The translations under genes and the position numbers were made by a program. A stretch of 42,482 nt of DNA, taken from positions 1 to 42,482 of the forward strand of contig JBGVOJ010000198.1 in assembly GCA_045126415.1 (NCBI GenBank), written 5' to 3'. Within the stretch, counting starts at the first letter, position 1. The number at the start of each line of letters is the position of its first letter. The DNA comes from Eubacteriales bacterium. GTDB taxonomy: Bacteria; Bacillota; Clostridia; Oscillospirales; CAG-272. Positions 4,179 to 38,262 of the stretch are shown here, piece by piece. The notes beneath the pieces are model-generated. The model saw nothing but the letters and a program-made list of their open reading frames with translations. It was not told the DNA's origin and ran no database searches.

Positions 4179-4238
4179 GGGGGAAACCTTTTTGAGGAAA
4201 AGGTTTCCCCCAAACCCCTTTCCAAAACCTTTTTGAAC
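4179..4238 (+). repeat. Intergenic palindromic element, copy A (type 2, ACC/GGT stem)
   Basis: GGGGGAAACCTTTT-tGAGG-AAAAGGTTTCCCCC hairpin 4179-4211 plus tail AAACCCCTTTCCAAAACCTTTTTGAAC. Starts 13 nt after the stop at 4165. Confidence 0.9.
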
Positions 4239-4255
4239 TGGAAAGGGGATTTTTT
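4215..4255 (+). terminator. Rho-independent terminator built from the tail of copy A
   Basis: CCCCTTTCCA (4215-4224) pairs with TGGAAAGGGG (4239-4248), followed by T6 (4250-4255). Confidence 0.65.
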
Positions 4256-4263
4256 ATATTTGT

Positions 4264-4328
4264 TTGTAAAGGAAACTTGACAGTGCGGCGATTTTATGCT
4301 ATAATCGCATTGTAAAGGAAACTTGACA
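4264..4328 (+). promoter_or_regulatory. Two perfect 19-bp direct repeats (TTGTAAAGGAAACTTGACA), candidate operator pair
   Basis: Identical 19-mers at 4264-4282 and 4310-4328. The first overlaps the -35. The second lies between the -10 and the RBS of the XRE gene. Confidence 0.6.
4277..4305 (+). promoter_or_regulatory. Consensus sigma-70/SigA-type promoter
   Basis: TTGACA (4277-4282), 17-nt spacer, TATAAT (4300-4305). Lies 39 nt upstream of the TTG start at 4344. Confidence 0.65.
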
Positions 4329-4343
4329 ACGGGTGGTGATTGA

Positions 4344-4553
4344 TTGAAGAACAGGGTGGAAGAACTGCGGAAGGAACGCGGGATCAGCCAGTACGAATTC
4401 GCACGGGCGATCCGGGTTTCGAGGCAGACGGTCAGTTCGATTGAAAACGGGAAGTACAACCCGTCGCTGGAACTGGCATTTATGATTGCGGAATATTTCG
4501 GAATGAAGATTGAGGAGATTTTTCTCCGGGAAAGGAGTACAAAGCATGAATAA
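4344..4553 (+). CDS. Small XRE-family helix-turn-helix transcriptional regulator
   Basis: 69 aa, TTG start. MKNRVEELRKERGISQYEFA..RQTVSSIENGKYNPSLELA is a typical Cro/C1 HTH. Confidence 0.9.
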   Translation: MKNRVEELRKERGISQYEFARAIRVSRQTVSSIENGKYNPSLELAFMIAEYFGMKIEEIFLRERSTKHE

Positions 4554-4989
4554 ACGGCATCTGATCGACGGAATCGCCTGTATTGTAATCGCGGGGATCG
4601 CATTTCTGCTGACCTTTCATCCGGCGATCCTGACCCCGGGACGGCTGACCAGTCTGGCTGTGATCTACATGATTCTCGGGTTGAAAGCAGTCATCCGGTA
4701 TTTTTATTACAATTCTCCCCGATACCGGGATTTCTACCATGAAAAGCTCGAATACGAAGCCATCGAAGAAAACGACGAACGCCGGATCCGGCTCTGCGAG
4801 AAAACCGGTTGGTACACCTATCAGTTCGGGCAGGAACTTCTTGTGGTCATGATTATCGTCTGTGCGATTCTGGATTCCTTCGGGCTGCTCGAAAACGCGG
4901 ACACATTCACTCTCGTGCTGGCGGGTTATATGATTCTGCAGGGCATCGCGGAACAGGTGATTTTCCGGTATCTCAGCAAAAAATACTGA
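4546..4989 (+). CDS. Four-TM membrane protein, translationally coupled to the XRE gene
   Basis: ATG 4546 with RBS aaaggag (4531-4537). Overlaps the XRE stop by 8 nt. 147 aa with four hydrophobic segments. No family recognised. Confidence 0.7.
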   Translation: MNKRHLIDGIACIVIAGIAFLLTFHPAILTPGRLTSLAVIYMILGLKAVIRYFYYNSPRYRDFYHEKLEYEAIEENDERRIRLCEKTGWYTYQFGQELLVVMIIVCAILDSFGLLENADTFTLVLAGYMILQGIAEQVIFRYLSKKY

Positions 4990-5058
4990 GTTTTTCATAC
5001 AACTTCGGTATGGTGAAACGCCCCAAATTCCGTTTGGTTTAATTGGCTAGAATGTTCA

Positions 5059-5087
5059 TTGACAAATATCGTTATTTATAGTATAAT
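5059..5087 (+). promoter_or_regulatory. Consensus sigma-70/SigA-type promoter for the blaI-like operon
   Basis: TTGACA (5059-5064), 17-nt spacer, TATAAT (5082-5087). Confidence 0.6.
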
Positions 5088-5155
5088 TGCTGTATGTGAA
5101 TCGGCGCGTTTTTTGTGACTTTTTTATGTACGCGCCATAAAGGAGAACATTATCC

Positions 5156-5554
5156 ATGAGAGGAAGAAGAAAAACTGTGAAAATATCCGAAGCGGAATGG
5201 AGCATCATGAAGGTACTGTGGGACGGCTGTGACCGGAATGACCGCGGCATGACCCTCGGCGAGATCGTAGCCGCGCTTGCCGAAACGTCCGACTGGAGCA
5301 ATACCACTATCCGTACCCTGATTATCCGTCTGGCGGAAAAGGGCGCGGTCGACATCGACAAGACCACCGGTGTTTACAAGTACACGCCCCGTACCTCCAA
5401 GGAAGACTGCGTGAAGAGTGAAGTGGAATCCTTTATCGAACGTGTTTTCGACAATTCCACCTACAAGCTCATGGCGTCCCTCGTTCGTGAAGGGCGTCTG
5501 ACCGACAAGGAAAAGAAGGACATCATCAATATTTTAAGCGACATCGAAGACTGA
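5156..5554 (+). CDS. BlaI/MecI/CopY-family transcriptional repressor
   Basis: 132 aa. ISEAEWSIMKVLW..TLGEIV...WSNTTIRTLIIRLAEKGAV is a winged-helix Penicillinase_R pattern. RBS aaaggag. Confidence 0.9.
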   Translation: MRGRRKTVKISEAEWSIMKVLWDGCDRNDRGMTLGEIVAALAETSDWSNTTIRTLIIRLAEKGAVDIDKTTGVYKYTPRTSKEDCVKSEVESFIERVFDNSTYKLMASLVREGRLTDKEKKDIINILSDIED

Positions 5555-5595
5555 AAATTATAAGTTTAAACAAAACGATATGATCCCTTTTGTTT

Positions 5596-5694
5596 AAAAG
5601 GTTTTTGGAAGGGGTTCGGGGAAACCACGGAGGTTACGGAGTAACCTCCAGAAGGAACGAAGTTCCTTCATTTTTCCTTAAAAAAGGTTTCCCC
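5596..5694 (-). repeat. Intergenic palindromic element, copy B (type 2) with 44-nt nested insertion
   Basis: Reverse-complemented tail at 5596-5617. Arm GGGGAAACC at 5618-5626. Insert at 5627-5670 holds two perfect hairpins (5629-5649 and 5651-5669). TTTTTCCTTAAAAAAGGTTTCCCC at 5671-5694. Confidence 0.85.
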
Positions 5695-5723
5695 GAGAAA
5701 CATCCCCCTGTAAGGTAACTTTT

Positions 5724-7928
5724 ATGGCGGAATTTTTAGTACTGTTATTGATGCAGGTTACTGTTTTTTCGTCAGTCACAGCTTTGATACTGATTGCGGT
5801 CAAGCAGATCTTCAAGTGCCGGATTCCGCCGCTCATCGGAACGATGATGTGGGTCGTGCTTCTGGCGCGGCTGGTCTGTCCGATCTTTCCGGAGAGCAGC
5901 ATTTCGGTCTATAATTTCATTCCCGTCGGGCGGAACATCATGTTTACGCTGACATATGATGTCGGCGTGAGTCTGGAAGAGCAGGAAGCTGCCTTTTCGG
6001 AACGGGAGAATCCGTATGTTCTGCACGGGCTTCCGTCAGAAGAGTCGCAGGAACCTGCGGTGGGGATGTCCGCGGATGAGACGGGAACTCTTTCGCTCGG
6101 GGAATATCTGGGCGAAGCCATCGCGGATGAAAAAGAGGAGGCCGTTGTCTACACGAGACAGCTCAATCTGGCGATTCTGTTCGGGTATGCTGCCGGAATC
6201 GTTGGAATGCTGACTTATCACATTGCTGCGTATTTCCGTGCGAAGCGGATGGCAATGCTTCTTTCCTCGCCGTGTGAGGACGAGGAACTGCTGAAGATCT
6301 ACCGGAATGCGGCAGCTTCTGCGGGGATCTCCATCTATGCTCTTCCGGAACTGCGGGTCGGTTTTTCTTCCATGGTTGTCGGATGCGTGAAGCCGTGCAT
6401 TATCTGCCGGGACGGCACCGATGAACGGGAAGCCGGCATGATGTTCGCGCATGAGCTGATCCACTACAAGCATCACGACAACGCGCTGCTCCTGTTTGCG
6501 ACGCTGATCGCCTGCCTCTACTGGTACAATCCGCTGATCTGGATCGTCCGTGCGATGCTGCGGGAGGACATTGAGCTTCTCTGCGACTCCCGGACGCTGG
6601 AGGAATGCGGAATCGTAGGAACGGATTACGCGATGATGCTGTGCCGGAACTCGGCGTTCAATGAGCTTGCATACAGTGCCGGATGTCATATGTCGGCAAG
6701 CGGACGGCATCTCAAGACCAGACTCCGGACGATCTCCCTGCGTAAACGCCGGAATTTTTTCTCGCGTGCAGGGTCCGTTCTGCTGTGCACCGCGATTATT
6801 ATGCTGTGCCTGACCAATCCCATTGTCTCGCAGAGCAGTGAATACTCTACATACATTGAACATTATGCCGCCCTGACCGGAGCCGACAAACGGACAATGC
6901 ATCTGCAGTCCGGTGTGACGGTTTCAGATTATCTCGGGCAGATCGGTACCCTGGTAACACAGAAAGCGGGTACGGAGGCCTGGCGGAAGATCGGCGGCAA
7001 TCTGGAAAAATTCAAGCGGATCTGCGAAGCGGATACCACCATTTCGTCCGCTGTGAAGCAGGATGTACGCAAGCTGAAGACGGATGAACTTCTGACCAGC
7101 AAGAGCTGTGCACTCATCACGGACTGCATGGTGCATCTGCTGTCCGGCGGAAAAACATTTGGTGCGGAGGAGCTTCTTCTCCTGCCGGATGTGATCGGAA
7201 CGGCGGACATGGAAGCACTGCTTGTGAACCTGACGGAAAATGAAGGAAACGCTGTGTTATCCTGTTATAACCGCGGGGTACGCGGTGCGGACGTGCAGTT
7301 TGCAAGGATTTACACGAGCGCGATGATGGAGCTGATTCTCTCGCGCATCAACGACGACTGGTTGAAGCTGAAGGTTCTCGGGTTCTACCAGAAGGTTGAG
7401 GGGGAACGGCTGTCGGACTATGCAATGAGTGAAGCAATGCGGACAGCTCTCGAAGCGGTCGGTGCGGGACGGGATTTCTACATCCTTGACCCGAACACTA
7501 CGCAGGCGGAAGAAAATCTCCTGCGAAATATTCTTGCTTTTGCGGCGGCCGGAGAGGACGAAAACGTCTATTACCGGAAAGGTGCAGAGGACGGATGCGA
7601 CTGGGAGACTGCGGCGTTCCTGTTCTACCGTGCCGGATATACGCATGAAGCGATGTTCCGGAATTATGCGGAGATCGGCGATAACAACGCACGGCTTGCC
7701 GTGGATGCCGTGGTGTATCCGGTTCTGCGGGATGTGCGGAACATCACGCTGCGCGGAACGGGTACGGCAGGAGCACGCGCGGCTCTGCTGAATGTGTACG
7801 CGCTGGGAATCCTTGACGCGGACGCAGGTGTTCTCGATATGAACGAACGCCTGAACTGCGGCGAAAGTCTTGCCGCAGCGTATCGTCTGGTGTATTATGC
7901 CGTCGGAACAGATATGGCTGTGAACTGA
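5724..7928 (+). CDS. M56-family (BlaR1/MecR1-like) membrane metalloprotease/sensor with a non-PBP C-terminal domain
   Basis: 734 aa. HELIH zinc motif at residues 243-247. N-terminal TM helices. About 365 aa of soluble C-terminal domain that I cannot assign. Confidence 0.85.
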   Translation: MAEFLVLLLMQVTVFSSVTALILIAVKQIFKCRIPPLIGTMMWVVLLARLVCPIFPESSISVYNFIPVGRNIMFTLTYDVGVSLEEQEAAFSERENPYVLHGLPSEESQEPAVGMSADETGTLSLGEYLGEAIADEKEEAVVYTRQLNLAILFGYAAGIVGMLTYHIAAYFRAKRMAMLLSSPCEDEELLKIYRNAAASAGISIYALPELRVGFSSMVVGCVKPCIICRDGTDEREAGMMFAHELIHYKHHDNALLLFATLIACLYWYNPLIWIVRAMLREDIELLCDSRTLEECGIVGTDYAMMLCRNSAFNELAYSAGCHMSASGRHLKTRLRTISLRKRRNFFSRAGSVLLCTAIIMLCLTNPIVSQSSEYSTYIEHYAALTGADKRTMHLQSGVTVSDYLGQIGTLVTQKAGTEAWRKIGGNLEKFKRICEADTTISSAVKQDVRKLKTDELLTSKSCALITDCMVHLLSGGKTFGAEELLLLPDVIGTADMEALLVNLTENEGNAVLSCYNRGVRGADVQFARIYTSAMMELILSRINDDWLKLKVLGFYQKVEGERLSDYAMSEAMRTALEAVGAGRDFYILDPNTTQAEENLLRNILAFAAAGEDENVYYRKGAEDGCDWETAAFLFYRAGYTHEAMFRNYAEIGDNNARLAVDAVVYPVLRDVRNITLRGTGTAGARAALLNVYALGILDADAGVLDMNERLNCGESLAAAYRLVYYAVGTDMAVN

Positions 7929-7943
7929 ATGAAACAGAAAATC

Positions 7944-8000
7944 GGGGGAAACTTTTTCGAAAAAGAGTTTCCCCCGAACCCCTTTCAAAAAACTTCAATC
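7944..8000 (+). repeat. Intergenic palindromic element, copy C (type 1)
   Basis: GGGGGAAACTTTTTCGAAAAAGAGTTTCCCCC plus tail GAACCCCTTTCAAAAAACTTCAATC. Starts 15 nt after the stop at 7928. Confidence 0.9.
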
Positions 8001-8018
8001 GAGGACAGATTGGAGTTT

Positions 8019-8441
8019 TTATTCTTTGAGCTGATAGAGATAATAGGTATCTTTGTTTTCATCGTAGACGGCGATGGCGTTTTCGTTGTCGAGGACAGCG
8101 TAGAAGGGAGAACCGAAGATACGGAACGGTGAGGTGTTGTCGGGAAGGATGTATTCCTCAAAATTTTCGATGTATGAGGGAACATCATTATCGGTATATC
8201 CGAGAAGTTTACCGACATTTTCGAGGAAAACTTCTGTCTCGTTCCAGTCACCCTCATAGATATGTCCGTTGTATTTGACAAAGTCACTCCATTCTATATA
8301 TACCGGCGCAGGAGTATCTCTTGCGACAGTTTCCCCGATCGCACTCGGCGGTGAGGCTGTTTCGGCGGAATCCTCCGGCTTATGATTGCAGGCGAGCAGG
8401 CAAAGGATGATACAGAGAGCGATCAGCAGCAGTTTCAGCAT
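8019..8441 (-). CDS. Hypothetical lipoprotein
   Basis: 140 aa. Signal peptide with lipobox LLAC. RBS ggagg. Lower GC than neighbours. Confidence 0.7.
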   Translation of the reverse strand: MLKLLLIALCIILCLLACNHKPEDSAETASPPSAIGETVARDTPAPVYIEWSDFVKYNGHIYEGDWNETEVFLENVGKLLGYTDNDVPSYIENFEEYILPDNTSPFRIFGSPFYAVLDNENAIAVYDENKDTYYLYQLKE

Positions 8442-8571
8442 GGGAATATCCTCCGTTCGCAGTGTTTTCTGATAATATAGACGAACGAAAGCGGCAATTT
8501 GTTCCGGATTTTGCGATACTTTTTATCTATAATTCAACTATTGAATTTTCATTATTTACAAAATACTGATA

Positions 8572-8593
8572 ATGTGTTATCATTAAAACACAT
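8572..8593. promoter_or_regulatory. Inverted repeat ATGTGTT-N8-AACACAT (LysR-type T-N11-A-like box)
   Basis: 7-bp arms at 8572-8578 and 8587-8593, in the divergent region between the lipoprotein gene and the LysR gene. Confidence 0.4.
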
Positions 8594-8624
8594 ATTAACG
8601 GGGAAACCATCATGGGGGTTCACT

Positions 8625-9533
8625 ATGACGATCCAACAATGCAAATATATTCTTGCGATCGCGCGGCTCGGTTCGATGAATGAAGCAGCAAAGGCACTTC
8701 TGGTATCGCAGGCAAGCCTGTCGTCGGCGGTGCGGGAGCTGGAGAACGAATTCGGGATCCATATTTTTGACCGTTCCAACAAAGGCGTGCGGATCACGCG
8801 GGAAGGTTCGGAGTTTATCCGGTATGCACGGCAGCTTCTTGCGCAGTATGAGGTCATTACCGACCGGTATGAACGGGATGACAAAAAGACGGTGAGGAAT
8901 TTTGCCGTGACGTCCCAGCATTACGATTTTGTCGCGGAAGCGTTCGTGCGCTTCATGAAAAAATACCGTTCGGACTATAACCTGTCGCTCAAGGAAGCGC
9001 GTACCATCGAGGTTATCGAGGACGTCCGGAACCTCAATTCCGACATCGGTATTCTCGCTTACCTCAAGGCTCCCGCCGGAGGGTACATGGAACGCTACCT
9101 CAAGCGCAACGGACTTGAATTCCGGCAGCTTTTCGAAACCTGTCCGCACGTTTTCATGGGGCGCCATAACCCTCTTGCGTCCAGTGAAAAACTCACCCGC
9201 GAAGACCTTACCGAATATCCTTACATCACTTACGATCAGGGCGAGACCGGCCCCGTTGAGTTTTCCGAAGAACTTTCCGAATACAGCCAGTCGAAGAAGC
9301 ATATCCGCATCAACGACCGCGCGACCCTTATGAACCTTCTTCTCAGTACGGACAGCTATACCCTTGGCACAGGCGTCATGACCTCCGATCTCAATAACGG
9401 CAATGTCATCGCTATTCCCCTCGTCTCCGGCGACGTCTACACAGTTGGTATCATCAACCGTGCCGACGTCGGTCTCAGCGAGGAGGCGGAACGCTTTGTG
9501 AAGATCCTGTACGAAACGGTAGGGGACAGATAA
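8625..9533 (+). CDS. LysR-family transcriptional regulator
   Basis: ATG 8625 inside ORF 8499..9533. MTIQQCKYILAIARLGSMNEAAKALLVSQASLSSAVRELE is a LysR HTH. 302 aa. Confidence 0.9.
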   Translation: MTIQQCKYILAIARLGSMNEAAKALLVSQASLSSAVRELENEFGIHIFDRSNKGVRITREGSEFIRYARQLLAQYEVITDRYERDDKKTVRNFAVTSQHYDFVAEAFVRFMKKYRSDYNLSLKEARTIEVIEDVRNLNSDIGILAYLKAPAGGYMERYLKRNGLEFRQLFETCPHVFMGRHNPLASSEKLTREDLTEYPYITYDQGETGPVEFSEELSEYSQSKKHIRINDRATLMNLLLSTDSYTLGTGVMTSDLNNGNVIAIPLVSGDVYTVGIINRADVGLSEEAERFVKILYETVGDR

Positions 9534-9536
9534 AAG

Positions 9537-9570
9537 AAAACCTCTTTCCAGCTGGGAAAGAGGTTTTTTT
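9537..9570. terminator. Bidirectional rho-independent terminator between convergent genes
   Basis: AAAACCTCTTTCC-AGCT-GGGAAAGAGGTTTTTTT, with an A-run upstream and T7 downstream. Confidence 0.8.
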
Positions 9571-9589
9571 ACGGGGAGTTTCAAGAGGT

Positions 9590-10873: not shown

Positions 10874-10904
10874 GATATTTCTCCTTTGAAGTGGATTTTT
10901 TATC

Positions 10905-10960
10905 GGGGAAAAACTTTTTGAAAAAAGTTTTTCCCCGAACCCTTTTTCAAAAACTTTTAT
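10905..10960 (+). repeat. Intergenic palindromic element, copy D (type 1)
   Basis: GGGGAAAAACTTTTT-G-AAAAAAGTTTTTCCCC plus tail GAACCCTTTTTCAAAAACTTTTAT. The hairpin ends 31 nt upstream of the dehydrogenase start on the minus strand. Confidence 0.9.
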
Positions 10961-11012
10961 ACTATAAAAAATAAAGTATGCGAAAAGGGGGGAGTAACTT
11001 TTTTCAGTTTTT

Positions 11013-11041
11013 ATTATAACACGTTTTATAAATTCCGTCAA
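11013..11041 (-). promoter_or_regulatory. Predicted promoter for the dehydrogenase gene
   Basis: On the minus strand: TTGACG (11041-11036), 17 nt, TGT-TATAAT (11018-11013). This implies a roughly 130-nt leader containing copy D. Confidence 0.5.
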
Positions 11042-11147
11042 TCGGGAAAAATCAACAAGAAAAAACTTGTGGAATGAGCGATGTTAAGAAGCTGTCAAAA
11101 ATGTGAAGTATGTTAAATTTACACCATACTCCACATTTTCTTTCCCA

Positions 11148-11207
11148 GATTGAAGTTTTTTGAAATGGGGTTGGGGGAGAAACTTTTTTTCAAAAAAGTT
11201 TCTCCCC
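11148..11207 (-). repeat. Intergenic palindromic element, copy E (type 1, GAGAAAC/GTTTCTC variant stem)
   Basis: GATTGAAGTTTTTTGAAATGGGGTT + GGGGGAGAAACTTTTTTT-C-AAAAAAGTTTCTCCCC. Lies 8 nt from the trpS stop. Confidence 0.9.
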
Positions 11208-11215
11208 AAGAGTCC

Positions 11216-15619: not shown

Positions 15620-15647
15620 GAAGAAAAAGTTTACAGGAGCAGGTAAA

Positions 15648-18796: not shown

Positions 18797-18855
18797 TTGA
18801 AAAGGTTTTTGGAAAGGGTTCGGGGAAACCTTTTTCCTTAAAAAAAGGTTTCCCC
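18797..18855 (-). repeat. Intergenic palindromic element, copy F (type 2)
   Basis: TTGAAAAGGTTTTTGGAAAGGGTTC + GGGGAAACCTTTTT-CCTT-AAAAAAAGGTTTCCCC. Lies 16 nt from the fucI stop. Confidence 0.9.
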
Positions 18856-18871
18856 GAGAAACTTTATTCAC

Positions 18872-20683: not shown

Positions 20684-20722
20684 TATGATAATTCCTTTCG
20701 AAATATAGAATGTGAGGTTCTT

Positions 20723-20779
20723 GGGGAAAACTTTTTTTCAAAAAAGTTTTCCCCAAACCCCTTTCAAAAAACTTCAATC
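20723..20779 (+). repeat. Intergenic palindromic element, copy G (type 1)
   Basis: GGGGAAAACTTTTTTT-C-AAAAAAGTTTTCCCC plus tail AAACCCCTTTCAAAAAACTTCAATC. The hairpin ends 39 nt upstream of the fucI start. Confidence 0.9.
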
Positions 20780-20846
20780 TGGGTGAATTTACAAGGTGCA
20801 GCTGAAATCGTTTGGAAAGGGGCGGACGAATCGCTTTCTATAGGGA

Positions 20847-20875
20847 ATTATACCATGGGCAAAGGAAAATTGCAA
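20847..20875 (-). promoter_or_regulatory. Predicted fucI promoter (extended -10)
   Basis: On the minus strand: TTGCAA (20875-20870), 17 nt, TGG-TATAAT (20852-20847). This puts copy G inside a roughly 155-nt leader. Confidence 0.5.
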
Positions 20876-24667: not shown

Positions 24668-24683
24668 TTGATGAACTTATATC

Positions 24684-24740
24684 GGGGAAAACTTTTTTGA
24701 AAAAAAGTTTTCCCCGAACCCCTTTCAAAAAACTTTAAAC
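24684..24740 (+). repeat. Intergenic palindromic element, copy H (type 1)
   Basis: GGGGAAAACTTTTTT-G-AAAAAAAGTTTTCCCC plus tail GAACCCCTTTCAAAAAACTTTAAAC. Starts 16 nt after the fba stop. Confidence 0.9.
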
Positions 24741-24838
24741 AAATATATTTGCAAAGTGCAGTGCAGATTTTACGAATGGACTTTTTGAATATATTGGTTT
24801 AAATTGAGTTCTATTAAAAAAAATGGAGAGTACGACGG

Positions 24839-27170: not shown

Positions 27171-27223
27171 CAAAGTTTTTTGAAAGGGGTTTGGGGAAAA
27201 CTTTTTTCAAAAAAGTTTTCCCC
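27171..27223 (-). repeat. Intergenic palindromic element, copy I (type 1)
   Basis: CAAAGTTTTTTGAAAGGGGTTT + GGGGAAAACTTTTTT-C-AAAAAAGTTTTCCCC. Lies 15 nt from the upstream gene's stop at 27239. Confidence 0.9.
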
Positions 27224-27238
27224 AAGAAATTCAATTTT

Positions 27239-30883: not shown

Positions 30884-30912
30884 TTGAACTTCCCCTGCTT
30901 TTGTGGTATAAT
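30884..30912 (+). promoter_or_regulatory. Predicted rbfA operon promoter (extended -10)
   Basis: TTGAAC (30884-30889), 17 nt, TGG-TATAAT (30907-30912). Confidence 0.5.
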
Positions 30913-30977
30913 AAAATGTATTTCTATACGCTGCAGGGCGTATACTGTAAAAATTATCAGATAAAGGATTTGGATAT

Positions 30978-32448: not shown

Positions 32449-32451
32449 TCC

Positions 32452-33393
32452 ATGGGAAGACGCAAACCGGACACCATTTCCGGTGTCCTTATTATCAACA
32501 AGCACGCGGGGGTGACGTCGCACCGGATCATTTCGTCCGTGCGGAAGCTGTTTGACACCTCCCGCGTCGGTCACACGGGGACGCTCGATCCGATGGCGAC
32601 GGGGGTTCTGCCCGTTCTGCTCGGACGTGCGGCAAAGGCATCGGATTATCTGATGATGCACGACAAGGAGTACATCTGTGAGATGAAGCTCGGGCTGACG
32701 ACCGATACGGAGGACGTCACCGGCGAAATTCTCTCGCAGTCTAACGCAATCCCTGATGAGGAAACCGTCCTTGCGGCGTGTGCGTCGTTTGTCGGGAAGA
32801 TTGAACAGATTCCGCCGATGTATTCCGCAGTCAAGGTGGACGGCCGCAAGCTCGTCGACATCGCCAGAGAGGGCGGAGAAGTCGAGCGTAAGCCTCGTCC
32901 GGTGGAGATCTATGAAATCGACGTACATAAAGTGGCGGACGACGTGTATTCCATGCGGGTCGCGTGCTCGAAGGGGACGTACATCCGTACGCTGTGCAGC
33001 GACATCGGCAAGAAGCTCGGCTGCGGCGCGGCGATGCAGTCGCTTGTGCGTACGAAAACCGGACAGTTTACCCTTGACGACTGCGTGACCGTCGAACAGC
33101 TCGACAGCATGACCTTTGAAGAGCGGCTGACTCTGCCGAAAACGGTGGAATCGCTGTTCATGGAGCTTCCGGAAGTGAACATTCCGGATTATTACGTGAA
33201 GCTGGTGCGCGGCGGGACGAATCTGTTCCAGAAGAAGCTGAAGGCCGAATTTGAGGACGGGACGCTGATCCGTATCCGGAACCGCGGCGAGTTCATCGCG
33301 CTTGGACGTGCAGAAACGGATGAGAACGGCAAGGCGGTCATCCGTCCGGAAAAGCTGTTCAGTCTCGGAGAACAACCGGACGCGGAGGGCTGA
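32452..33393 (+). CDS. truB: tRNA pseudouridine(55) synthase
   Basis: 313 aa. VGHTGTLDPMATGVLPVLLG catalytic motif. Confidence 0.95.
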   Translation: MGRRKPDTISGVLIINKHAGVTSHRIISSVRKLFDTSRVGHTGTLDPMATGVLPVLLGRAAKASDYLMMHDKEYICEMKLGLTTDTEDVTGEILSQSNAIPDEETVLAACASFVGKIEQIPPMYSAVKVDGRKLVDIAREGGEVERKPRPVEIYEIDVHKVADDVYSMRVACSKGTYIRTLCSDIGKKLGCGAAMQSLVRTKTGQFTLDDCVTVEQLDSMTFEERLTLPKTVESLFMELPEVNIPDYYVKLVRGGTNLFQKKLKAEFEDGTLIRIRNRGEFIALGRAETDENGKAVIRPEKLFSLGEQPDAEG

Positions 33394-33394
33394 C

Positions 33395-34018
33395 ATGAAG
33401 ATTATCGACTGCCCGTTCATTGACCAGCGGGAGAAATATCCGACCGGATGTGAAAGTGTGTCGGCTGTGATGCTCCTGCGGCATTTCGGCTTTGACGTGA
33501 CGCCGGAGGAGTTTATCGACAACTGCCTGCCGAAGGCACCGGAGCCGATGTGCGAAAATGGCGTCTGGTATGCCGCCGATCCGCAGCATTTTTACCTCGG
33601 CAATCCTTACACGGACGACGGCTGGGGCTGCTTTGCGCCGGCGGTCTGTGCAGGTCTGCGGGAATATCTCGGCGATTCGGAAGAATTCGAGGTACGGGAA
33701 GTGTACGGCAGTACGCTTGCCGATCTCTGCCGTGAGTACATCGGACGGGACATCCCCGTGATTGTATTCGCGACGATGGGAATGGCGGCTCCGCGGGAAT
33801 ACCGGACGTGGAAAATTCCCGGGACGGAGAAGACATACACGTGGAAGACCCCGATGCACTGTCTGCTGCTCGTCGGGTATGACGGAGAGTCGTTCGTGTT
33901 CAACGATCCTCTGGTCGGGAAGAATACCGTTTATCCGGAGGAAACGGCGTCTGCCGCCCATGAAGGTATGGGGATGCAGGCGGCGGTGCTGTTAAAACGG
34001 TTAAATAATTGTAAATAA
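33395..34018 (+). CDS. C39-like papain-fold cysteine peptidase
   Basis: ATG 33395 lies directly after the truB stop. YPTGCESVSAVMLL (Cys) and HCLLLVGYD (His). 207 aa. Confidence 0.6.
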   Translation: MKIIDCPFIDQREKYPTGCESVSAVMLLRHFGFDVTPEEFIDNCLPKAPEPMCENGVWYAADPQHFYLGNPYTDDGWGCFAPAVCAGLREYLGDSEEFEVREVYGSTLADLCREYIGRDIPVIVFATMGMAAPREYRTWKIPGTEKTYTWKTPMHCLLLVGYDGESFVFNDPLVGKNTVYPEETASAAHEGMGMQAAVLLKRLNNCK

Positions 34019-34115
34019 TTGCGGAAAACACACTATTTGTTTCCAATGTGTGTTATAATTAAAAATCAGGATAATCAAAAAACGACGGGAGTTTTGGCTT
34101 CCGTCAAGGACAGAA

Positions 34116-35456
34116 ATGAAAAAAAAGTCAGTTTTTGACACAAATTATCTCACGCGTACCGGTCTGTACGTTCTGACAGCGGCTCTGGCGTTCGGCGTTC
34201 TTGTCTACGCGGCGTATCATCTTCTCGGGCGTTTTTCGCCCGGTCTGGAGCTGGTCGACGCCGTTCCGACGAGTGTGTCGAAGACCGTTTCCGCTGATGG
34301 CTACATCATGCGCGACGAAACGGCAGTCTATGCGACGGACGTTTTCGGCGGCAGTGTGGCTCCCGCAGTAAGGGACGGTTCGCATGTCTCCCTTTACGGG
34401 AAGATCGCGGATGTTTACGCCAATTCTTCGCCCGATACGGAAACGCGTCTGAGGGAGCTGGACGAACAGATCGCACTTCTCGAAAAAAATCAGTCCGAGA
34501 ACCGTTCGGTGCAGAGCGCATCCGGGCTGGACGCGGATATTTACAGCGATCTTTTCACCATCCGTTCCCATTGTGAGGACGGAAATTATGCCGATGCACT
34601 CGCGCTTCGTACCGAGCTTCTCGTCGGTATCAAAAAACGTGCGATCCTGACCGGGGAGATCACCGACTATGCGTCGCAGATCTCTATGCTGGAAGGAGAA
34701 AAAGCCTCCCTGCGCACCGGTCTGGGCGCAAATCTCGGTTCGGTCTACAGTGCGTCGGCAGGGTATTTCTTCTCGGATGCCGACGGCTACGGGAATATCT
34801 TTTCTTCCGACAGGATCGACAGTATGACGTTCGATGAATTCCTGCAGATGACGGAGACCGATCCGGAAACGGGAACCGGACTCAGCATCGGGACGATCGT
34901 AACGGATTACAAATGGTACATCGCCTGTCTCATGGACAAGGCGGATGCGGCGGGTTTGGCGGATCGTTATTCCTGCGACGTCATGTTCCGGTACAGCGGG
35001 CAGATGCTGGAAATGCATGTGTACCGCGTGATCCCCGAAACGCCCGGAGACCGTTCCGTGGTCGTTCTGGAGTGCGGGAAGATGCCCGTTAATTTTGATT
35101 ATACGCGCATGCAGCCGGTGGATATCGTGACGGCGACCTATACCGGATACGAGATTCCGTCTTCCGCAGTCCGGGTGGTCGGCGGTTTTCAGGGAGTCTA
35201 TGTCAAGAACGAGGTCACCATTGAATTCCGGCGCATCCATATTCTGTATGAATACGACGGAAAGATCATCTGTTCCGGAAAACCGGACAGCATGAAATAC
35301 GAGAAGGGCCCCGACGGTACCTACAAAACAGATGAAAACGGACGGCGCATTGAGGTCGTCGATACCAACGACGAGATCTATCCGTGGATCGCACAGAACG
35401 ATATCGTGGTTGTGAGCGGTACGGAACTGTATTCCGGCAAGACGATCGACGACTGA
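34116..35456 (+). CDS. HlyD-like membrane-anchored coiled-coil/beta-barrel protein
   Basis: 446 aa. N-terminal TM. Coiled-coil segments RLRELDEQIALLEKNQ and SMLEGEKASLR. The position upstream of yggS recurs in Clostridia, from memory. Confidence 0.55.
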   Translation: MKKKSVFDTNYLTRTGLYVLTAALAFGVLVYAAYHLLGRFSPGLELVDAVPTSVSKTVSADGYIMRDETAVYATDVFGGSVAPAVRDGSHVSLYGKIADVYANSSPDTETRLRELDEQIALLEKNQSENRSVQSASGLDADIYSDLFTIRSHCEDGNYADALALRTELLVGIKKRAILTGEITDYASQISMLEGEKASLRTGLGANLGSVYSASAGYFFSDADGYGNIFSSDRIDSMTFDEFLQMTETDPETGTGLSIGTIVTDYKWYIACLMDKADAAGLADRYSCDVMFRYSGQMLEMHVYRVIPETPGDRSVVVLECGKMPVNFDYTRMQPVDIVTATYTGYEIPSSAVRVVGGFQGVYVKNEVTIEFRRIHILYEYDGKIICSGKPDSMKYEKGPDGTYKTDENGRRIEVVDTNDEIYPWIAQNDIVVVSGTELYSGKTIDD

Positions 35457-35484
35457 CAAGGCAGAGATTCAAAGAAGGCACAGA

Positions 35485-36201
35485 ATGACAGAAAGACAGA
35501 TCGAACTGCATGACAATTACATGCGGGTTCTTGAAAAAATTGAAAACGCGAAGGCAAGACGCACAGTGAATACCGGACGGGAAGTGACCCTTCTCGCCGC
35601 AACCAAAACCGTTGCTGCGGAGGACATTACGTTTCTTGTGGAAAACTACGGTCTGCGGCTGTGCGGGGAAAACCACGCGCAGGAGTTCAATGCGAAGTAT
35701 GAGGCTGTCACGGCGGCGGGTGCACGGATGGATTTCATCGGGCATCTGCAGACCAACAAGGTGAAGTACATCGCCGGACGCGCCGGGCTGATCCATTCCG
35801 TAGATTCCGTCCGTCTGGCGCAGGAGATCGACCGGAAGTGTACCGCGCTCGGTGTCCGTCAGGGAATTCTGGTGGAGGTCAACATCGGTATGGAGGAATC
35901 CAAAACCGGTATCGCTCCCTCGGAATTCGAACGATTTGTGGAAGAAATTTCCGGATTTTCGTCGATTGACATTTGTGGGATGATGACGATGGCACCGAAA
36001 TGCACGGAAAATGACGAATTTCGCAAATATTTTAGAGAATCTTGCAGAATATTTCTTGACTTTTTCGCAAAAAAAACGCATAATATAGGAGAGCCTGTTT
36101 TGTCTATGGGAATGAGTGACAGTTACGAGTGCGCCATAGAGGAAGGCTCCACGATGGTACGCGTCGGCAGTGCGATTTTCGGTTCCCGGAAATACACCTG
36201 A
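35485..36201 (+). CDS. yggS: YggS-family pyridoxal-phosphate homeostasis protein
   Basis: 238 aa. LLAATKTV, GENHAQE, FIGHLQTNKVKY and SMGMSDSYE motifs. Confidence 0.9.
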   Translation: MTERQIELHDNYMRVLEKIENAKARRTVNTGREVTLLAATKTVAAEDITFLVENYGLRLCGENHAQEFNAKYEAVTAAGARMDFIGHLQTNKVKYIAGRAGLIHSVDSVRLAQEIDRKCTALGVRQGILVEVNIGMEESKTGIAPSEFERFVEEISGFSSIDICGMMTMAPKCTENDEFRKYFRESCRIFLDFFAKKTHNIGEPVLSMGMSDSYECAIEEGSTMVRVGSAIFGSRKYT

Positions 36202-36298
36202 CCGTGTGCTATCGGATCAATACCTGGCACAACTTATTTTATTATTTAAATAATTTATGTGGATTACACTGCCGAACAACGGCAGCATGGAGGTTAAC

Positions 36299-36877
36299 AT
36301 GGGACTTATGGATCGAATCAAGAAGGTAACCGGCACGAACGACTCTTACGATGATTCCTACGATGACGATTACTACCAGGGCTTCGATAACGGCTACGAC
36401 GAAGGCGGCATGGCACCGGAAGATGATGTTCAGGTTGCCGGCGGCATGAATATGGGTATGGGCAATACGCAGCAGATCAATCCTCAGCCGATGGGCGGGA
36501 TGAACATGAACGCACAGCCGGCACAGAACGGCCCCATCGGTTTTTCCGGTTCCAACATCAAGATGCAGGTCGTTCGTCCGAAGACCTACGACAGCGATAC
36601 CGCTTCTCAGATCGCAAATCACCTTCTCAACAAGTGCACCGTCGTTCTGAACCTTGAAAATTCCAACAAGGAAACCTCGAGAAGACTGATCGACTTCCTC
36701 TCCGGCGTTGCTTACTCCATCGGCGGCAACCTCAAGCGCATTGCTGTCAACGCATACGTGGTTACTCCCGCGAATGTTGATGTGGAAGATGCAAAGATCA
36801 AGGCTGCTCCCCGCCGTTCCGAACCCCAGCCCGAAGCAAAGGAAGCTGCAAGCGAAGATTTCTCCGATTTTAACTGA
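36299..36877 (+). CDS. sepF: Cell division protein SepF
   Basis: ATG 36299 with RBS ggagg. The C-terminal half VVRPKTYDSDTASQIANHLLNKCTVVLNLE..RLIDFLSGVAYSIGG is SepF-like. Confidence 0.9.
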   Translation: MGLMDRIKKVTGTNDSYDDSYDDDYYQGFDNGYDEGGMAPEDDVQVAGGMNMGMGNTQQINPQPMGGMNMNAQPAQNGPIGFSGSNIKMQVVRPKTYDSDTASQIANHLLNKCTVVLNLENSNKETSRRLIDFLSGVAYSIGGNLKRIAVNAYVVTPANVDVEDAKIKAAPRRSEPQPEAKEAASEDFSDFN

Positions 36878-37024
36878 GAACACTCGGGAACTATAGGGAT
36901 ACATAAGAATACACAAACGTAAACTGAAGCTGTACGGCGATCAGGTTTTGTTTGTGTACTCAAAAATGCGGTTTCGCGACAAACTAAGAAACCGCAGAGA
37001 CCCATTATCCACCGGAGGAAACAA

Positions 37025-37291
37025 TTGTATCAGTTTTTTTATGTGCTGACTGCCACAGTAAGTTATCTTATCACCGCGATCCAATTGCTGATGTTCGCGC
37101 GTGCGATTCTGAGCTGGCTGCCCATCGATGAAGACAATCCCATTGTGAACTTTCTTTATGCCGTGACGGAGCCGGTTATCATGCCGGTCCGCGCGGTGAT
37201 CGAACGCTTCGGATGGTTTGAAGGAATGCCGATCGATATGTCGTTCTTCATTACGTTCCTTCTTTTGTCGATCCTTGAAGTGATGCTTTGA
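37025..37291 (+). CDS. yggT: YggT-family membrane protein
   Basis: 88 aa, TTG start with RBS ggagga. LMFARAILSWLP..NPIVNFLYAVTEPVIMPVR. Confidence 0.85.
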   Translation: MYQFFYVLTATVSYLITAIQLLMFARAILSWLPIDEDNPIVNFLYAVTEPVIMPVRAVIERFGWFEGMPIDMSFFITFLLLSILEVML

Positions 37292-37316
37292 CCTTTTTGT
37301 ACTATCTGACCGAACT

Positions 37317-38156
37317 ATGACAAACAGCAATACGATGGTATCACGGGCAATGGACAGATTACGCGAATCGGAGTATGCCATTGCCGTGACCGATTTTATG
37401 ACCCCCGCGGAGATCGCGGAGGTTTACAGCAATTTAATTACCCGGAGCGGCGGCGGTATCGCCAGATGCTTTTTCTGGGGCGGATGCCGTGGAGCCGAAA
37501 GGTCTACCGCGGTTTTTTTGCCTGAGTGGTATCTTCCTGAGCCGGACGCACCCCGCCATGCTCTTCCGCTTGATACGGCGAGACGCGATGCGTTTGCTGC
37601 ACATCTGGCAGCGAATCCGGAGATCGCCGCCGAGATTCCGATCCGTGCGATCCGGATCCGGGGCAGCGGGTTCCGCGAACTGACGCACCGGGATTTTATG
37701 GGAGGGATTCTCTCCCTCGGCATTGAGCGCAGTACGATCGGCGATATTGCCGTGATTTCCGAGGCGGAGGCGCTGGTGTTTGCGCTCGACAAAATTGCAC
37801 CGTACATCGTTTCCGAACTGCACAAGATCGGAAGGGACGGCGTCCGCGCGGAGCTGTGCGAACTTCCGCCGGAGTACGAAATTCCCCGCCGGTACGAAAC
37901 GATGGAAATTGCCGTATCGTCCGCGCGGCTTGACGGCATTGTCCGTGCGCTGACGGGCAAATCCCGGGAAGCGGCGGCCGACATGATCCGGACCGGTCTT
38001 GTGGAACTGCGTTATCTCCCGACGGAGAACGTCTCTGCCGAAGTAAAAGACGGCGACATTTTATCCGTCCGAGGTTTCGGCAAATACGTGATCGGGGAAA
38101 CGGACGGTCAGACCCGGAGCGGTCGCATCAAAATCAAATGCCGGAAATACATCTGA
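37317..38156 (+). CDS. ylmH: YlmH-like S4-domain RNA-binding protein
   Basis: 279 aa. C-terminal S4-like ARLDGIVRALTGKSREAAADMIRTGLVELRY. Start is uncertain because the RBS is weak. Confidence 0.8.
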   Translation: MTNSNTMVSRAMDRLRESEYAIAVTDFMTPAEIAEVYSNLITRSGGGIARCFFWGGCRGAERSTAVFLPEWYLPEPDAPRHALPLDTARRDAFAAHLAANPEIAAEIPIRAIRIRGSGFRELTHRDFMGGILSLGIERSTIGDIAVISEAEALVFALDKIAPYIVSELHKIGRDGVRAELCELPPEYEIPRRYETMEIAVSSARLDGIVRALTGKSREAAADMIRTGLVELRYLPTENVSAEVKDGDILSVRGFGKYVIGETDGQTRSGRIKIKCRKYI

Positions 38157-38206
38157 TGATATAAAAATTTCTGTTTTTAATTTTTATGATTTTCATATGT
38201 GTATGT

Positions 38207-38262
38207 GAAAAGATTTTGGAAAAGGGTCTGGGGAAAACCTTTTCCTTAAAAAGGTTTTCCCC
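38207..38262 (-). repeat. Intergenic palindromic element, copy J (type 2)
   Basis: GAAAAGATTTTGGAAAAGGGTCT + GGGGAAAACCTTTT-CCTT-AAAAAGGTTTTCCCC. Ends 40 nt upstream of the divIVA start. Confidence 0.9.

Follow-up and report, generated by a model that had tools for sequence, protein, structure and literature searches.

The 42,482-nt stretch of DNA analysed here (the window) carries ten full copies of a palindromic repeat, E1–E10, all of them where the original prediction had placed them, and exactly ten. We note that the window is a housekeeping chromosomal region. The copies and their associated features are as follows.

E1, 4176–4234, + strand: 13 nt past the stop codon of an aldolase/SDR gene (2216–4165), sense; basal TTT, left arm GGGGGAAACCTTTTT, loop GAGG, right arm AAAAGGTTTCCCCC, spacer AAA, tail CCCCTTTCCAAAACCTTTTT
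E1 anti-tail, 4239–4255, + strand: TGGAAAGGGG then a T-run, pairing with tail CCCCTTTCCA
E2, 5596–5697, − strand: between blaI (5156–5554) and blaR1 (5724–7928), antisense to both; hairpin end 29 nt from the blaR1 ATG; arm G4A3C2, tail CCCCTTCCAAAAACCTTTT
Secondary insert in E2, 5627–5670, + strand: 44 nt, two small GC hairpins
E3, 7941–8000, + strand: 15 nt past the blaR1 stop, between convergent genes; tail CCCCTTTCAAAAAACTT plus the extension CAATC
GATTGGAGTTTTT, 8008–8020, + strand: complement of the distal E3 tail, giving a terminator-like hairpin over 7988–8020
E4, 10902–10958, + strand: in the 5′ UTR of a Zn-ADH gene (minus strand, ATG at 10874, promoter-like site 11041–11013) and antisense to it; hairpin 30 nt from that ATG; arm G4A5C, tail CCCTTTTTCAAAAAC
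GCGAAAAGGGGGG, 10980–10992, + strand: nearly complementary to the E4 tail, thus a second copy, inverted and partial
E5, 11140–11212, − strand: flanked by the stop (11216) and the terminator (11098–11139) of trpS, sense; arm GGGGAGAAAC, tail CCCCATTTCAAAAAACTTCAATCTGGGAAAG
E6, 18800–18858, − strand: 16 nt past the fucI stop (18872), sense, with the fucI terminator next
E7, 20720–20783, + strand: fucI 5′ UTR, antisense to fucI, downstream of TTGCAA-17-TGGTATAAT; hairpin 39 nt from the ATG (20683)
TTTGGAAAGGGG, 20811–20822, + strand: complement of the E7 tail, paired with it in the minimum free energy (MFE) fold of 20716–20850
E8, 24681–24736, + strand: 16 nt past the fba stop (24667), sense
E9, 27172–27226, − strand: 15 nt past the stop of an SbcC-like gene (27239), sense
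E10, 38208–38265, − strand: between ylmH (37317–38156) and divIVA (38303–39871), antisense to both; hairpin 40 nt from the divIVA ATG

The claim of a dense, dispersed family of intergenic palindromes holds. With up to two mismatches allowed, the arm pattern GGGGAAAACNTTTTT has 28 matches where shuffles predict 0.49, and a profile of nine copies recovers its own nine at E = 5e-21 to 6e-17; the interrupted copy (5596–5694) appears as two half-hits and the rest lies at noise level. That copy, E2, is unusually long because of its 44-nt insert, which is missing from the orthologous copy of the related genome L113. On a Pfam-supported gene map all ten copies lie between genes and the window contains no transposase or RAYT-like domain, both as originally described. 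The copies are divided 5:5 across the strands, and GC skew is of one sign throughout. Rfam gives no match even at E ≤ 1, in line with the supposition that the repeat is uncatalogued, and its 15–16-mers have no match in the literature; the repeat is an undescribed family of intergenic elements.

Each unit consists of a 17–19-bp hairpin, a 3-nt spacer and a tail that mirrors the 3′ arm, the 5′ arm being (purine)8(pyrimidine)7, i.e. G4 A3–5 C1–3 T5–7. The anatomy first proposed, a hairpin of 14–16 bp with a tail on one side only, is correct except that the true stem is 1–4 bp longer, because the spacer that follows CCCC pairs with the 2–3 nt preceding GGGG. The proposed length of about 60 nt needs a similar correction: E5, the sole copy whose insertion can be delimited, measures 72–73 nt (11140–11212). 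The core conserved family-wide runs from about 5 nt before GGGG through ...AAAAAACTTT.

The hairpin is under selection. In its alignment 93.6% of cells are paired, and both partners have changed in 11 of 17 pairs (142 cells), a level reached by none of 500 shuffles. RNA folding z-scores of the hairpin range from −2.6 to −5.1. Two of the three spacer nucleotides also pair and co-vary with the 5′ flank, as TC/GA (28), TT/AA (24) and also CC/GG, GT/AC and GCGC/GCGC; column pair 9–44 is CG 42 times and UA 40 times.

A feature overlooked in the first reading is that the tail mirrors the 3′ arm. The spacer varies in sequence, and 84 of 91 copies have one of exactly 3 nt; the spacer and the hairpin arm or loop are the only places that tolerate additional hairpins. 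The spacer and the hairpin loop act as loops. Arm and tail co-vary in parallel polarity in several independent lineages, with coordinated changes G to C and A to T in the lower stem and T to A and C to G in the upper stem. When tails are compared with the parallel complement of the 5′ arm, a copy's own tail beats those of other copies at z = 9.4–9.9 (67 distinct types, 0 of 5000 permutations as good), although the copies share descent, so that permutation P values overstate independence and the truly independent coordinated changes number about a dozen. Block lengths change together as well (Spearman +0.74, p = 9e-9, for arm A-run and tail T-run; +0.92, p = 7e-19, for the two C blocks; +0.66, p = 1e-6, for arm T-run and tail A-run), and complementarity of columns is 95% at register 0, compared with 81% and 74% at ±1. 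Individual variants follow the same rule. Seven of the eight types with an upper-stem C-G pair have a G at the predicted place in the tail, as against none of the 64 without one (Fisher p = 5e-9); TTTTTC is matched by AAAAAG, TTCTTT by AAGAAA and TTTCT by AAAGA, in copies from Clostridia, Defluviitaleaceae, Thermodesulfobacteriota and Hydrogenedentota. Interrupted purine tracts are likewise mirrored in the tail, GAGGGAAA by CTCCCTT, GGGAGGGGAAA by CCCTCCCCTT and GGGGAGGAA by CCCCTCTT (Fisher p = 3e-4).

The copies are placed non-randomly, with the nearest gene on the hairpin-end side, a bias that had escaped the original prediction. Among 120 copies, 46 have a stop codon no more than 25 nt away on the hairpin side and 10 have one on the tail side, and stop-to-hairpin distances are 6–20 nt with peaks at 7–8 and 15–16 nt. 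The four start-adjacent copies of the window are all antisense, 29–40 nt from the ATG, and at least two of them sit downstream of promoter-like sites. The tails of E1 and E3 form part of terminator-like hairpins; that of E1 is a second hairpin made with the anti-tail (MFE of 4171–4262, −43.5 kcal/mol).

Full copies occur in 43 assemblies, many from gut and rumen Clostridia, together with Thermodesulfobacteriota, Desulfomonilales and Hydrogenedentota, so the family is dispersed as originally claimed, not a set of local duplicates. It spans several bacterial phyla, which had not been noticed before, at about 90% identity; the 56-nt core of E8 is 100% identical to a copy in the metagenome-assembled genome RGIG1778. 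Copies turn over between related species. L113 lacks the 72–73-nt block of E5 and has an empty site, the one clean insertion event documented; no target duplication as long as 2 nt is seen at the junctions, and the two ends of the block resemble each other only loosely (CTYTY). E3 is absent from the same genome, where an ordinary terminator takes its place, the E6 site is occupied by a different subfamily, and both L113 and a second related genome, L067, have extra copies.

The closest known kind is the BoxC repeat (= PIT element = TMECO), an intrastrand triplex motif of E. coli and other Proteobacteria (Holder et al. 2015, PMC4666352; also Hoyne and Maher 2000 and 2002, as cited in PMC4666352). 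TMECOs have the layout Y - N3-6 - R - N3 - RH and form a triplex in vitro, which was not detected in duplex DNA or in vivo; they are intergenic, occur in inverted doublets of two types and have no link to a transposase (PMC4666352). The present repeat shares with them the hairpin, the 3-nt second loop, the third block mirroring the adjacent arm, a strictly intergenic location in tens of copies on both strands, occasional inverted doublets of two different variants, the absence of linkage to transposons, phages and plasmids, and the gain, loss and change of copies between close relatives. The sequences are unrelated, however (CCCTCNCCC/GGGNGAGGG in BoxC/PIT/TMECO; GGGGAAAAC T6/A6 GTTTTCCCC here), and the hosts are Clostridia, Thermodesulfobacteriota and Hydrogenedentota rather than Proteobacteria. 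Whereas the TMECO belongs to class II (Y-R-RH), with a pure G-rich purine motif of 9 nt, one strand of the present repeat would fall into class III and the opposite strand into class I; the repeat has a longer hairpin (17–19 bp), and its 15-bp target changes purine strand halfway, so that a third strand must switch motif. TMECOs show no distance trend to ORFs, in contrast to the 6–20 nt past stop codons seen here, and their third strand is supported by biophysics, ours by evolutionary covariation in sequence.

Because of its mirror tail and covariation we place the repeat with these elements, and we think it somewhat probable that it is a non-autonomous, structure-defined repeat of the BoxC/PIT/TMECO kind but of a different, undescribed family, whose triplex fold is kept by selection. 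A mirror tail co-varying with the arm would be the signature of a selected DNA triple helix, and only a strand-switching fold-back triple helix appears to explain covariation in parallel polarity. The physical triplex, the strand and molecule that fold, a mobilising enzyme and a host benefit we infer. When one strand becomes free, as single-stranded DNA or possibly RNA, the hairpin would form and receive the folded-back tail in its major groove. In the C-rich strand's version, CCCCTTT would lie parallel to GGGGAAA(A) in C+.G-C and T.A-T triples, the third strand would cross at the C block, and beyond the crossing the A-run would lie antiparallel to the A-run of the 3′ arm in A.A-T and G.G-C triples. 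The G-rich strand would form the complementary set, G.G-C and A.A-T and then T.A-T, and this form may be the more likely in the cell because it needs no protonation of cytosine. Selection may keep the fold because it is required by putative machinery for copying or moving the element, and copies may survive, or be placed, hairpin-first just past stop codons and ahead of terminators, where they would act as REP-like stable hairpins in untranslated regions, sometimes built into terminators. Several details argue against a triplex. The free linker of 0–1 nt is too short; as two spacer nucleotides pair with the 5′ flank, the base of the hairpin must open before the tail turns back. A row of four C+.G-C triples is disfavoured at neutral pH (at least two consecutive C.G-C triples destabilise natural RNA triple helices). 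The C block at the junction is matched by C where the purine motif predicts G, and the tail sometimes offers A, not T, to the first A that follows G4.

A REP/RAYT-type origin, in which an HUH (Y1) enzyme whose gene lies elsewhere in the genome acts on hairpin and tail, the tail is a cleavage or guide sequence and the mirror pattern is incidental, we regard as possible but unlikely. A hairpin with a one-sided conserved flank is the general layout of HUH substrates (REP/RAYT, IS200/IS605, relaxases), and the repeat fits it. Like REP/BIME/REPIN sequences, which are mobilised by RAYT (Y1 HUH) transposases, it is a short, intergenic, high-copy, non-autonomous hairpin, found in 3′ UTRs just past stop codons as singlets and REPIN-like inverted doublets, and E5 inserted without target duplication. 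Yet a GTAG-like 5′ tetranucleotide is absent, the 5′ flank being merely the paired stem base, and the DNA sampled around the copies (812 kb) yielded neither a RAYT nor a Y1-like ORF, a weak point given an approximate probe. No gene recurs beside copies across different genomes, and the 5:5 strand division despite GC skew of one sign also speaks against this origin. REP families are lineage-specific, whereas this repeat crosses phyla; REPs have no mirror-image third block, and a tail changing in step with the arm in parallel polarity would be left without reason. That no transposase is present in the window or recurs near copies counts against an ordinary MITE, descended from an insertion sequence of the DDE type and bearing terminal inverted repeats and target-site duplications, as do the E5 junctions and termini and the asymmetry of hairpin plus one-sided tail; short, multi-copy, intergenic elements with presence/absence differences fit that idea, which we nonetheless consider highly improbable.

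A host element acting on mRNA is about as doubtful as the HUH substrate. Past stop codons, a very stable sense hairpin would block 3′ exonucleases or modulate translation termination in a REP-like manner, and in 5′ UTRs the antisense copies would present the tail complement GAAAGGGG as a Shine-Dalgarno-like stabiliser beside a 5′ hairpin. The orientation and distance bias past stops, the antisense start-adjacent copies with their promoter-like sites and the terminator-like use of the E1 and E3 tails all favour this account, as does the resemblance of the tail ACCCCTTTC to the anti-Shine-Dalgarno sequence ACCUCCUUUC. Against it, the sense strand folds no better (energies differ at p = 0.11), and the antisense strand has more wobble pairs than the sense strand (46 versus 20). 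Covariation in the upper stem obeys the rules of the purine motif (A.A-T, G.G-C), which RNA reportedly does not form. Such an element is absent from about 80 orthologues of fucI from other Firmicutes, and the host therefore does not need it; moreover, promoter or terminator activity was not seen in PIT elements (PMC4666352). A Watson-Crick switch, with the distal tail AAAAC(C)TTT pairing with the 3′ arm AAAG(G)TTTT in an attenuator-like alternative hairpin, is disfavoured and of the slightest probability: the 7–9 bp of complementarity, with C/CC and G/GG variants matching between subfamilies, would give a helix far weaker than the 15–19-bp hairpin and unused in MFE folds. Direct-repeat (Watson-Crick) models reach z ≤ 2.2 in the permuted-tail test (2.2 versus 9.9 for the mirror model), and TTCTTT/AAGAAA and like variants fit the mirror, not the direct, model.

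The fold-back triple helix that we favour also has parallels outside the BoxC/PIT/TMECO elements. By analogy only, RNA triple-helix stability elements (the ENE of PAN RNA, MALAT1, plant and fungal transposable-element RNAs) place a triple helix 3′ in a transcript, and some are carried by mobile elements; these are eukaryotic or viral and clamp an A-rich 3′ end with U.A-U triples, whereas an RNA form of the present repeat would need four adjacent C+.G-C triples and a purine-motif half, which is unlikely in RNA. With H-palindromes (mirror repeats that form H-DNA) and with synthetic intramolecular or alternate-strand triplexes the repeat shares a mirror repeat with a short central spacer and the C.G-C/T.A-T and G.G-C/A.A-T rules in the correct polarities, and with synthetic alternate-strand triplexes, for which linked third strands have been designed, two oligopurine tracts on alternate strands. 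In nature, H-motifs consist of long homopurine tracts that stem mostly from simple tandem repeats, whereas the mirror described here is a 15-nt composite that overlaps a perfect palindrome and is carried by a dispersed element.

A search of the window for the arm motif GGGGAAAACNTTTTT with up to two mismatches returned 28 matches where 0.49 are expected. These matches are both arms of ten hairpins, which lie exactly where the original prediction had placed ten copies of an intergenic hairpin-plus-tail element. Numbered by position, the copies are:

E1, 4176–4234, plus strand
E2, 5596–5697, minus strand
E3, 7941–8000, plus strand
E4, 10902–10958, plus strand
E5, 11140–11212, minus strand
E6, 18800–18858, minus strand
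E7, 20720–20783, plus strand
E8, 24681–24736, plus strand
E9, 27172–27226, minus strand
E10, 38208–38265, minus strand

Five copies lie on each strand. When nine of the ten copies were used to build a profile HMM, it recovered the same nine (E = 5e-21 to 6e-17), detected the interrupted copy at 5596–5694 as two half-matches, and matched nothing else in the window. Covariance-model searches of the whole window on both strands gave 0 Rfam matches at E ≤ 1. The Pfam gene map places all ten copies, as had been claimed, in intergenic gaps of a chromosomal region that carries housekeeping genes, and no transposase domain occurs among the window genes, in agreement with the reported absence of a transposase nearby. 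These genes encode an aldolase/SDR fusion, blaI-blaR1, a LysR regulator, a Zn-ADH, trpS, fucI, fba and FGGY kinases, together with sbcC/sbcD-like genes, nrnA, truB, sepF, yggT, ylmH, divIVA, lspA and rluD; no tRNA or tmRNA genes were found in the window. The G+C content is ~53%, and the GC skew is slightly negative over the first 4 kb and positive from ~4 kb on.

A 20-nt junction pattern scanned against 185,579 species genomes identified at least 110 loci in at least 43 assemblies beyond the window, showing that the copies belong to a dispersed family and did not arise by local duplication. By profile search, many MAGs of gut and rumen Clostridia contain complete copies, hairpin and tail together, and several often fall within 8 kb; the sampled loci of MAG RGIG1778, 93 kb in total, include 31, a density that is biased because these loci were chosen for containing a copy. 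Copies ~90% identical are present in Thermodesulfobacteriota (on contigs of 114–416 kb), Desulfomonilales, Defluviitaleaceae and a 1.6-Mb Hydrogenedentota contig. The element breaks short-read assemblies. Copies labeled 'Desulfovibrionaceae' are on contigs whose binning is doubtful, because they are short and often end within an element. Among these, L001, L002, L014, L027, L030 (L-numbers denote loci fetched from other genomes) and other CAYJGA/CAYJHT/CAYJHU contigs have a GC content of 0.45–0.50 and start or end inside an element. In IMG/VR a strict pattern gave 0 matches and a looser pattern 13 loci, only 2 with element-like sequence. One clear copy, at 6354–6405 of the predicted viral contig IMGVR_UViG_2751185719_000003 (L200), is situated immediately before a ribosome-binding site, its hairpin facing the gene start. 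Plasmid and phage collections gave no match by blastn, a search in which the low-complexity filter may hide matches. In the full text of the literature, 10-mers returned unrelated matches only and longer motifs up to 16-mers none, and nothing relevant was found on REP or MITE sequences in Clostridia. We are highly confident that this is a genuine and dispersed family, uncatalogued in the resources searched; the cautious interpretation offered originally is borne out by the lack of an Rfam match, the spread over at least 43 assemblies and the absence of a transposase domain from the window.

Each copy is laid out as follows:

Basal nucleotides: 2–3 nt, T[CT]
Left arm: G4-5 A3-5 C1-2 T5-7
Loop: 1–4 nt
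Right arm: exact complement of the left arm
Spacer between hairpin and tail: 3 nt, RAA
Tail, the one-sided block beyond the hairpin: C3-4 T2-5 C1-2 A4-6 C1-2 T2-5

The consensus is GGGGAAAAC(C)T5-6 ... A5-6(G)GTTTTCCCC RAA CCCCTTTC(C)A5-6C, and family-wide conservation extends from ~5 nt before GGGG to ...AAAAAACTTT. Folded as RNA, the hairpins are very stable, at −20 to −26 kcal/mol (z = −2.6 to −5.1). When 90 distinct copies from many genomes are aligned, paired cells amount to 93.6%, and 11 of 17 stem pairs have changed on both sides (142 cells), a figure reached by 0 of 500 shuffles. Two of the three spacer nucleotides belong to the stem, co-varying with the 5′ flank as base pairs (TC/GA 28, TT/AA 24, TTT/AAA 10, also CC/GG, GT/AC and GCGC/GCGC); alignment columns 9 and 44 pair as CG in 42 copies and as UA in 40. 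At the base of its stem, E4 differs by a compensatory change, TC/GA to TT/AA, from its counterpart in L113, a relative of the source genome. The spacer varies in sequence and measures exactly 3 nt in 84 of 91 copies, with rare hairpin insertions of 24–28 nt placed precisely within it; hairpins of 21–28 nt occur in the spacers of copies at L067 7643, L061 5308 and L053. E2 carries a 44-nt insert (window 5627–5670), missing from the orthologous L113 copy, that consists of two small GC hairpins, GGAGGTTAC-GGA-GTAACCTCC and GAAGGAAC-GAA-GTTCCTTC. This insert and the similar spacer hairpins may represent a second, even smaller insertion-prone module.

The tail is a mirror image of the right arm and is neither a direct nor an inverted repeat of anything. 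Read 5′ to 3′, it follows the block order of the left arm with G replaced by C, A by T, C by C and T by A. Comparison of each copy's own tail with the tails of other copies, scored as the parallel complement of its own arm, gave z = 9.4 (anchored) and 9.9 (local), a fit reached by 0 of 5000 permutations over 67 distinct arm/tail types, which, the copies being related, correspond to about a dozen independent coordinated events. A direct-repeat model amounts to Watson-Crick pairing of the tail with one or other arm; such models gave z ≤ 2.2, and a mirror of the 3′ arm fitted the tail better than the Watson-Crick, direct-repeat and mirror-of-5′-arm models did. Block lengths are correlated between arm and tail (arm C and tail C, rho = 0.92; arm A and tail T, 0.74; arm T and tail A, 0.66; arm G and tail C, 0.38). 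Types with an upper-stem C-G pair have a G at the predicted place in the tail A-run in 7 of 8 cases, as against 0 of 64 types without such a pair (Fisher p = 5e-9); these variants (TTTTTC to AAAAAG, TTCTTT to AAGAAA and TTTCT to AAAGA) come from Clostridia, Defluviitaleaceae, Thermodesulfobacteriota and Hydrogenedentota. Where the purine tract is interrupted, the tail likewise mirrors the interruption in register (GAGGGAAA to CTCCCTT, GGGAGGGGAAA to CCCTCCCCTT and GGGGAGGAA to CCCCTCTT; Fisher p = 3e-4), and complementarity across alignment columns is 95% in register as opposed to 81% and 74% when slid by one. The E1 orthologue in RGIG1778 (L017) differs by coordinated changes in left arm, right arm and tail (AAACC/GGTTT/TTTCC to AACCC/GGGTT/TTTCCC).

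Templated copying yields direct or inverted repeats, not mirror repeats, and mirror repeats have a single established property, the formation of triplexes. The mirror symmetry of the tail, together with the rules it obeys, led us to read the element as a fold-back triple helix. In such a fold the tail would leave the stem base parallel to the purine tract GGGGAAA(A), forming C+.G-C and T.A-T triples, would cross at the C block, and would then run antiparallel to the right-arm purine run, forming A.A-T and G.G-C triples. The complementary strand would form G.G-C/A.A-T triples and then T.A-T triples, and its fold would be the more plausible at cellular pH because it needs no protonated cytosine. 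Judged from sequence, the element combines a hairpin having an oligopurine arm with a third block that follows (reverse-)Hoogsteen rules in the correct polarity, and the second loop, 1–6 nt long in repeats of this kind and 3 nt in TMECO, is short here too (3 nt in 84 of 91 copies), with two of the three spacer nucleotides also pairing with the 5′ flank. Linked third strands that serve oligopurine tracts lying on alternate strands have been described in oligonucleotide chemistry. Natural RNA triple helices are destabilised by consecutive C.G-C triples, and triplexes of the purine motif reportedly do not form in RNA. The antisense strand has more wobble pairs than the sense strand (46 versus 20), and no RNA folding advantage of the sense strand was found; the wobble bias and the equal folding of the sense strand are consistent with a fold at the DNA level or of the G-rich strand. 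Against the fold, pairing of the spacer leaves a free linker that is too short unless the stem base opens, and the junction C is matched by C. We consider the chances that the triple-stranded fold is the selected feature to be close to evenly balanced. We propose more tentatively, as somewhat less than an even prospect, that a multi-phylum mobile element carries a strand-switching intramolecular triplex which co-evolves with both hairpin strands and is kept by selection. On this reading the triplex would probably be the structure recognised by a machinery that copies the element or places it behind stop codons. If true, this would be the first comparative-genomic proof of a triplex as a functional structure in bacteria. 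The third strand tracks the duplex with the correct polarity in at least four clades, which is hard to explain unless the fold is selected.

The closest known kind of repeat is BoxC, also called PIT or TMECO, of E. coli and other Proteobacteria, the only well-studied case, which forms a triplex in vitro that was not detected in vivo, has no known function and lacks promoter or terminator activity (Holder et al. 2015, PMC4666352). TMECO and our element both consist of a hairpin followed by a 3-nt loop and a mirror-image third block; both are intergenic, occur on both strands and as inverted doublets of two types, vary between strains and are not associated with mobile elements. They differ in triplex class (III/I for the element, whose third strand must switch strands, and II for TMECO), hairpin length, host phyla and position behind stop codons; unlike that of TMECO, the third strand of the element is supported by covariation. 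The element is not a member of the TMECO family proper, because its consensus has no sequence similarity to the TMECO consensus, CCCTCNCCC N3-6 GGGNGAGGG N3 GGGNGAGGG (PMC4666352). The family provides evidence of a type unlike that for BoxC/TMECO and a concrete, abundant test object in the form of a 57-nt oligonucleotide, natural compensatory variants and empty sites.

Placement of the element is REP-like. The 5′ tetranucleotide of REP/RAYT systems (GTAG or similar) is absent, the 5′ flank being T[CT] or a variant that co-varies with the spacer; a tblastn search of 812 kb around copies with an approximate IS200 TnpA probe, a weak test for a cognate RAYT (Y1 HUH) gene of the sort that REPs usually flank, found no match, and clustering 2217 ORFs from 110 loci all against all revealed no family recurring beside copies. 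A MITE of a DDE transposon is argued against by the lack of terminal inverted repeats beyond CTYTY-like ends and of a target-site duplication at E5 (one event). An intrinsic terminator would end in a U-run, and here RAACCCC follows the hairpin; a terminator scan picks up only E4, via a T-run inside its tail, the terminator-like hairpins of E1 and E3 need extra downstream sequence, and true terminators follow E5 and E6. Integron attC sites are imperfect palindromes behind cassette genes that end in R″/R′ core sites (RYYYAAC ... GTTRRRY), whereas the element ends in GGGGAAAAC ... GTTTTCCCC and neighbours core housekeeping genes (trpS, fba, fucI, divIVA). The defining features of a CRISPR repeat, a dif/Xer site, a CodY box and a G-quadruplex or i-motif are absent from the sequence, and to our knowledge none of BOX, RUP, ERIC and Correia resembles the element in consensus or host range. 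On balance we lean slightly towards the whole description, predicted fold included, of a new cross-phylum family of intrastrand-triplex repeats that is mobile or turning over and has REP-like placement.

The hairpin end points toward the nearest gene in all ten window copies. E1, E3, E5, E6, E8 and E9 are sense and begin 8–16 nt after a stop codon, and E2, E4, E7 and E10 are antisense, 29–40 nt ahead of a start codon; E4 and E7 lie inside 5′ UTRs, since they are downstream of promoter-like sites. Across 120 copies, a long ORF ends within 25 nt on the hairpin side in 46 and on the tail side in 10, and the bias is weaker for start codons within 45 nt (17 versus 9). A possible selective cause is that the tail, which resembles an anti-Shine-Dalgarno sequence, would mask the ribosome-binding site if sense in a 5′ UTR. 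At convergent gene pairs the orientation rule leads to doublets whose tails face a central terminator, and in Thermodesulfobacteriota one such doublet, built around a perfect 22-bp hairpin, recurs as a unit of ~230 bp. At L023 3670–3890 (also L049 and L052) this composite palindrome has conserved outer flanks and two different element variants, tails inward. Terminator-like hairpins occur after the tail in 35 of 113 cases and before the hairpin in 29; because this is no clear enrichment, we no longer consider terminators a target of the element. E1, E3, E4 and E7 are each followed by a short stretch complementary to their tail, part of an inverted second copy, which creates a second hairpin; at E1 and E3 that hairpin is terminator-like. 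In uncultured gut Clostridia the element occupies 5′ and 3′ UTRs of housekeeping genes, where it may affect mRNA fate; it also generates spurious small ORFs.

Relatives of the source genome were found through trpS. Identity to the window is 99.35% for L111, 98.3% for L112, ~87–91% for L113 and 83–92% for RGIG1778, and copies are stable among strains and not among species. E5 is a clean 72–73-nt block between the trpS stop codon and the trpS terminator that L113 lacks; filled and empty sites reveal no target duplication of ≥2 nt and only CTYTY-like termini (a single event). L113 shares E2 and E4, has an ordinary terminator in place of E3, and at the E6 site carries a different subfamily adjoining the same terminator. 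Two extra copies surround a terminator at L113 9217–9416, where the window (9534–9589) has a different, plain terminator, and the same contrast is seen between L067 330–600 and L102 1850–1900. The element is mobile, or at least turning over. Between related species the DNA separating convergent genes is replaced in full, with a plain bidirectional terminator in one genome and an unrelated hairpin flanked by two elements in the other. None of 80 metagenome fucI loci from other Firmicutes (80–90% amino acid identity) carries the element, their flanks being too diverged for alignment as empty sites.

An A-run followed by (G/A)AGTATG occurs after several tails and in trpS terminator arms (4 versus 0.5 expected; window 10966–10980, 11098–11139 and 24820–24834, and the central hairpin of L113), a signal too weak to call as part of a larger unit. 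In the window, an exact 18-nt direct repeat, TGTAAAGGAAACTTGACA (4265–4282 and 4311–4328), brackets a perfect TTGACA-17-TATAAT promoter (4277–4305) upstream of ORF 4546–4989 and the blaI-blaR1 pair, an arrangement resembling an operator. The consensus is matched perfectly by a second promoter, at 5059–5087. At 38543–38788, two tandem 123-nt units that are 90% identical form a coding repeat within the divIVA-like ORF 38303–39871.
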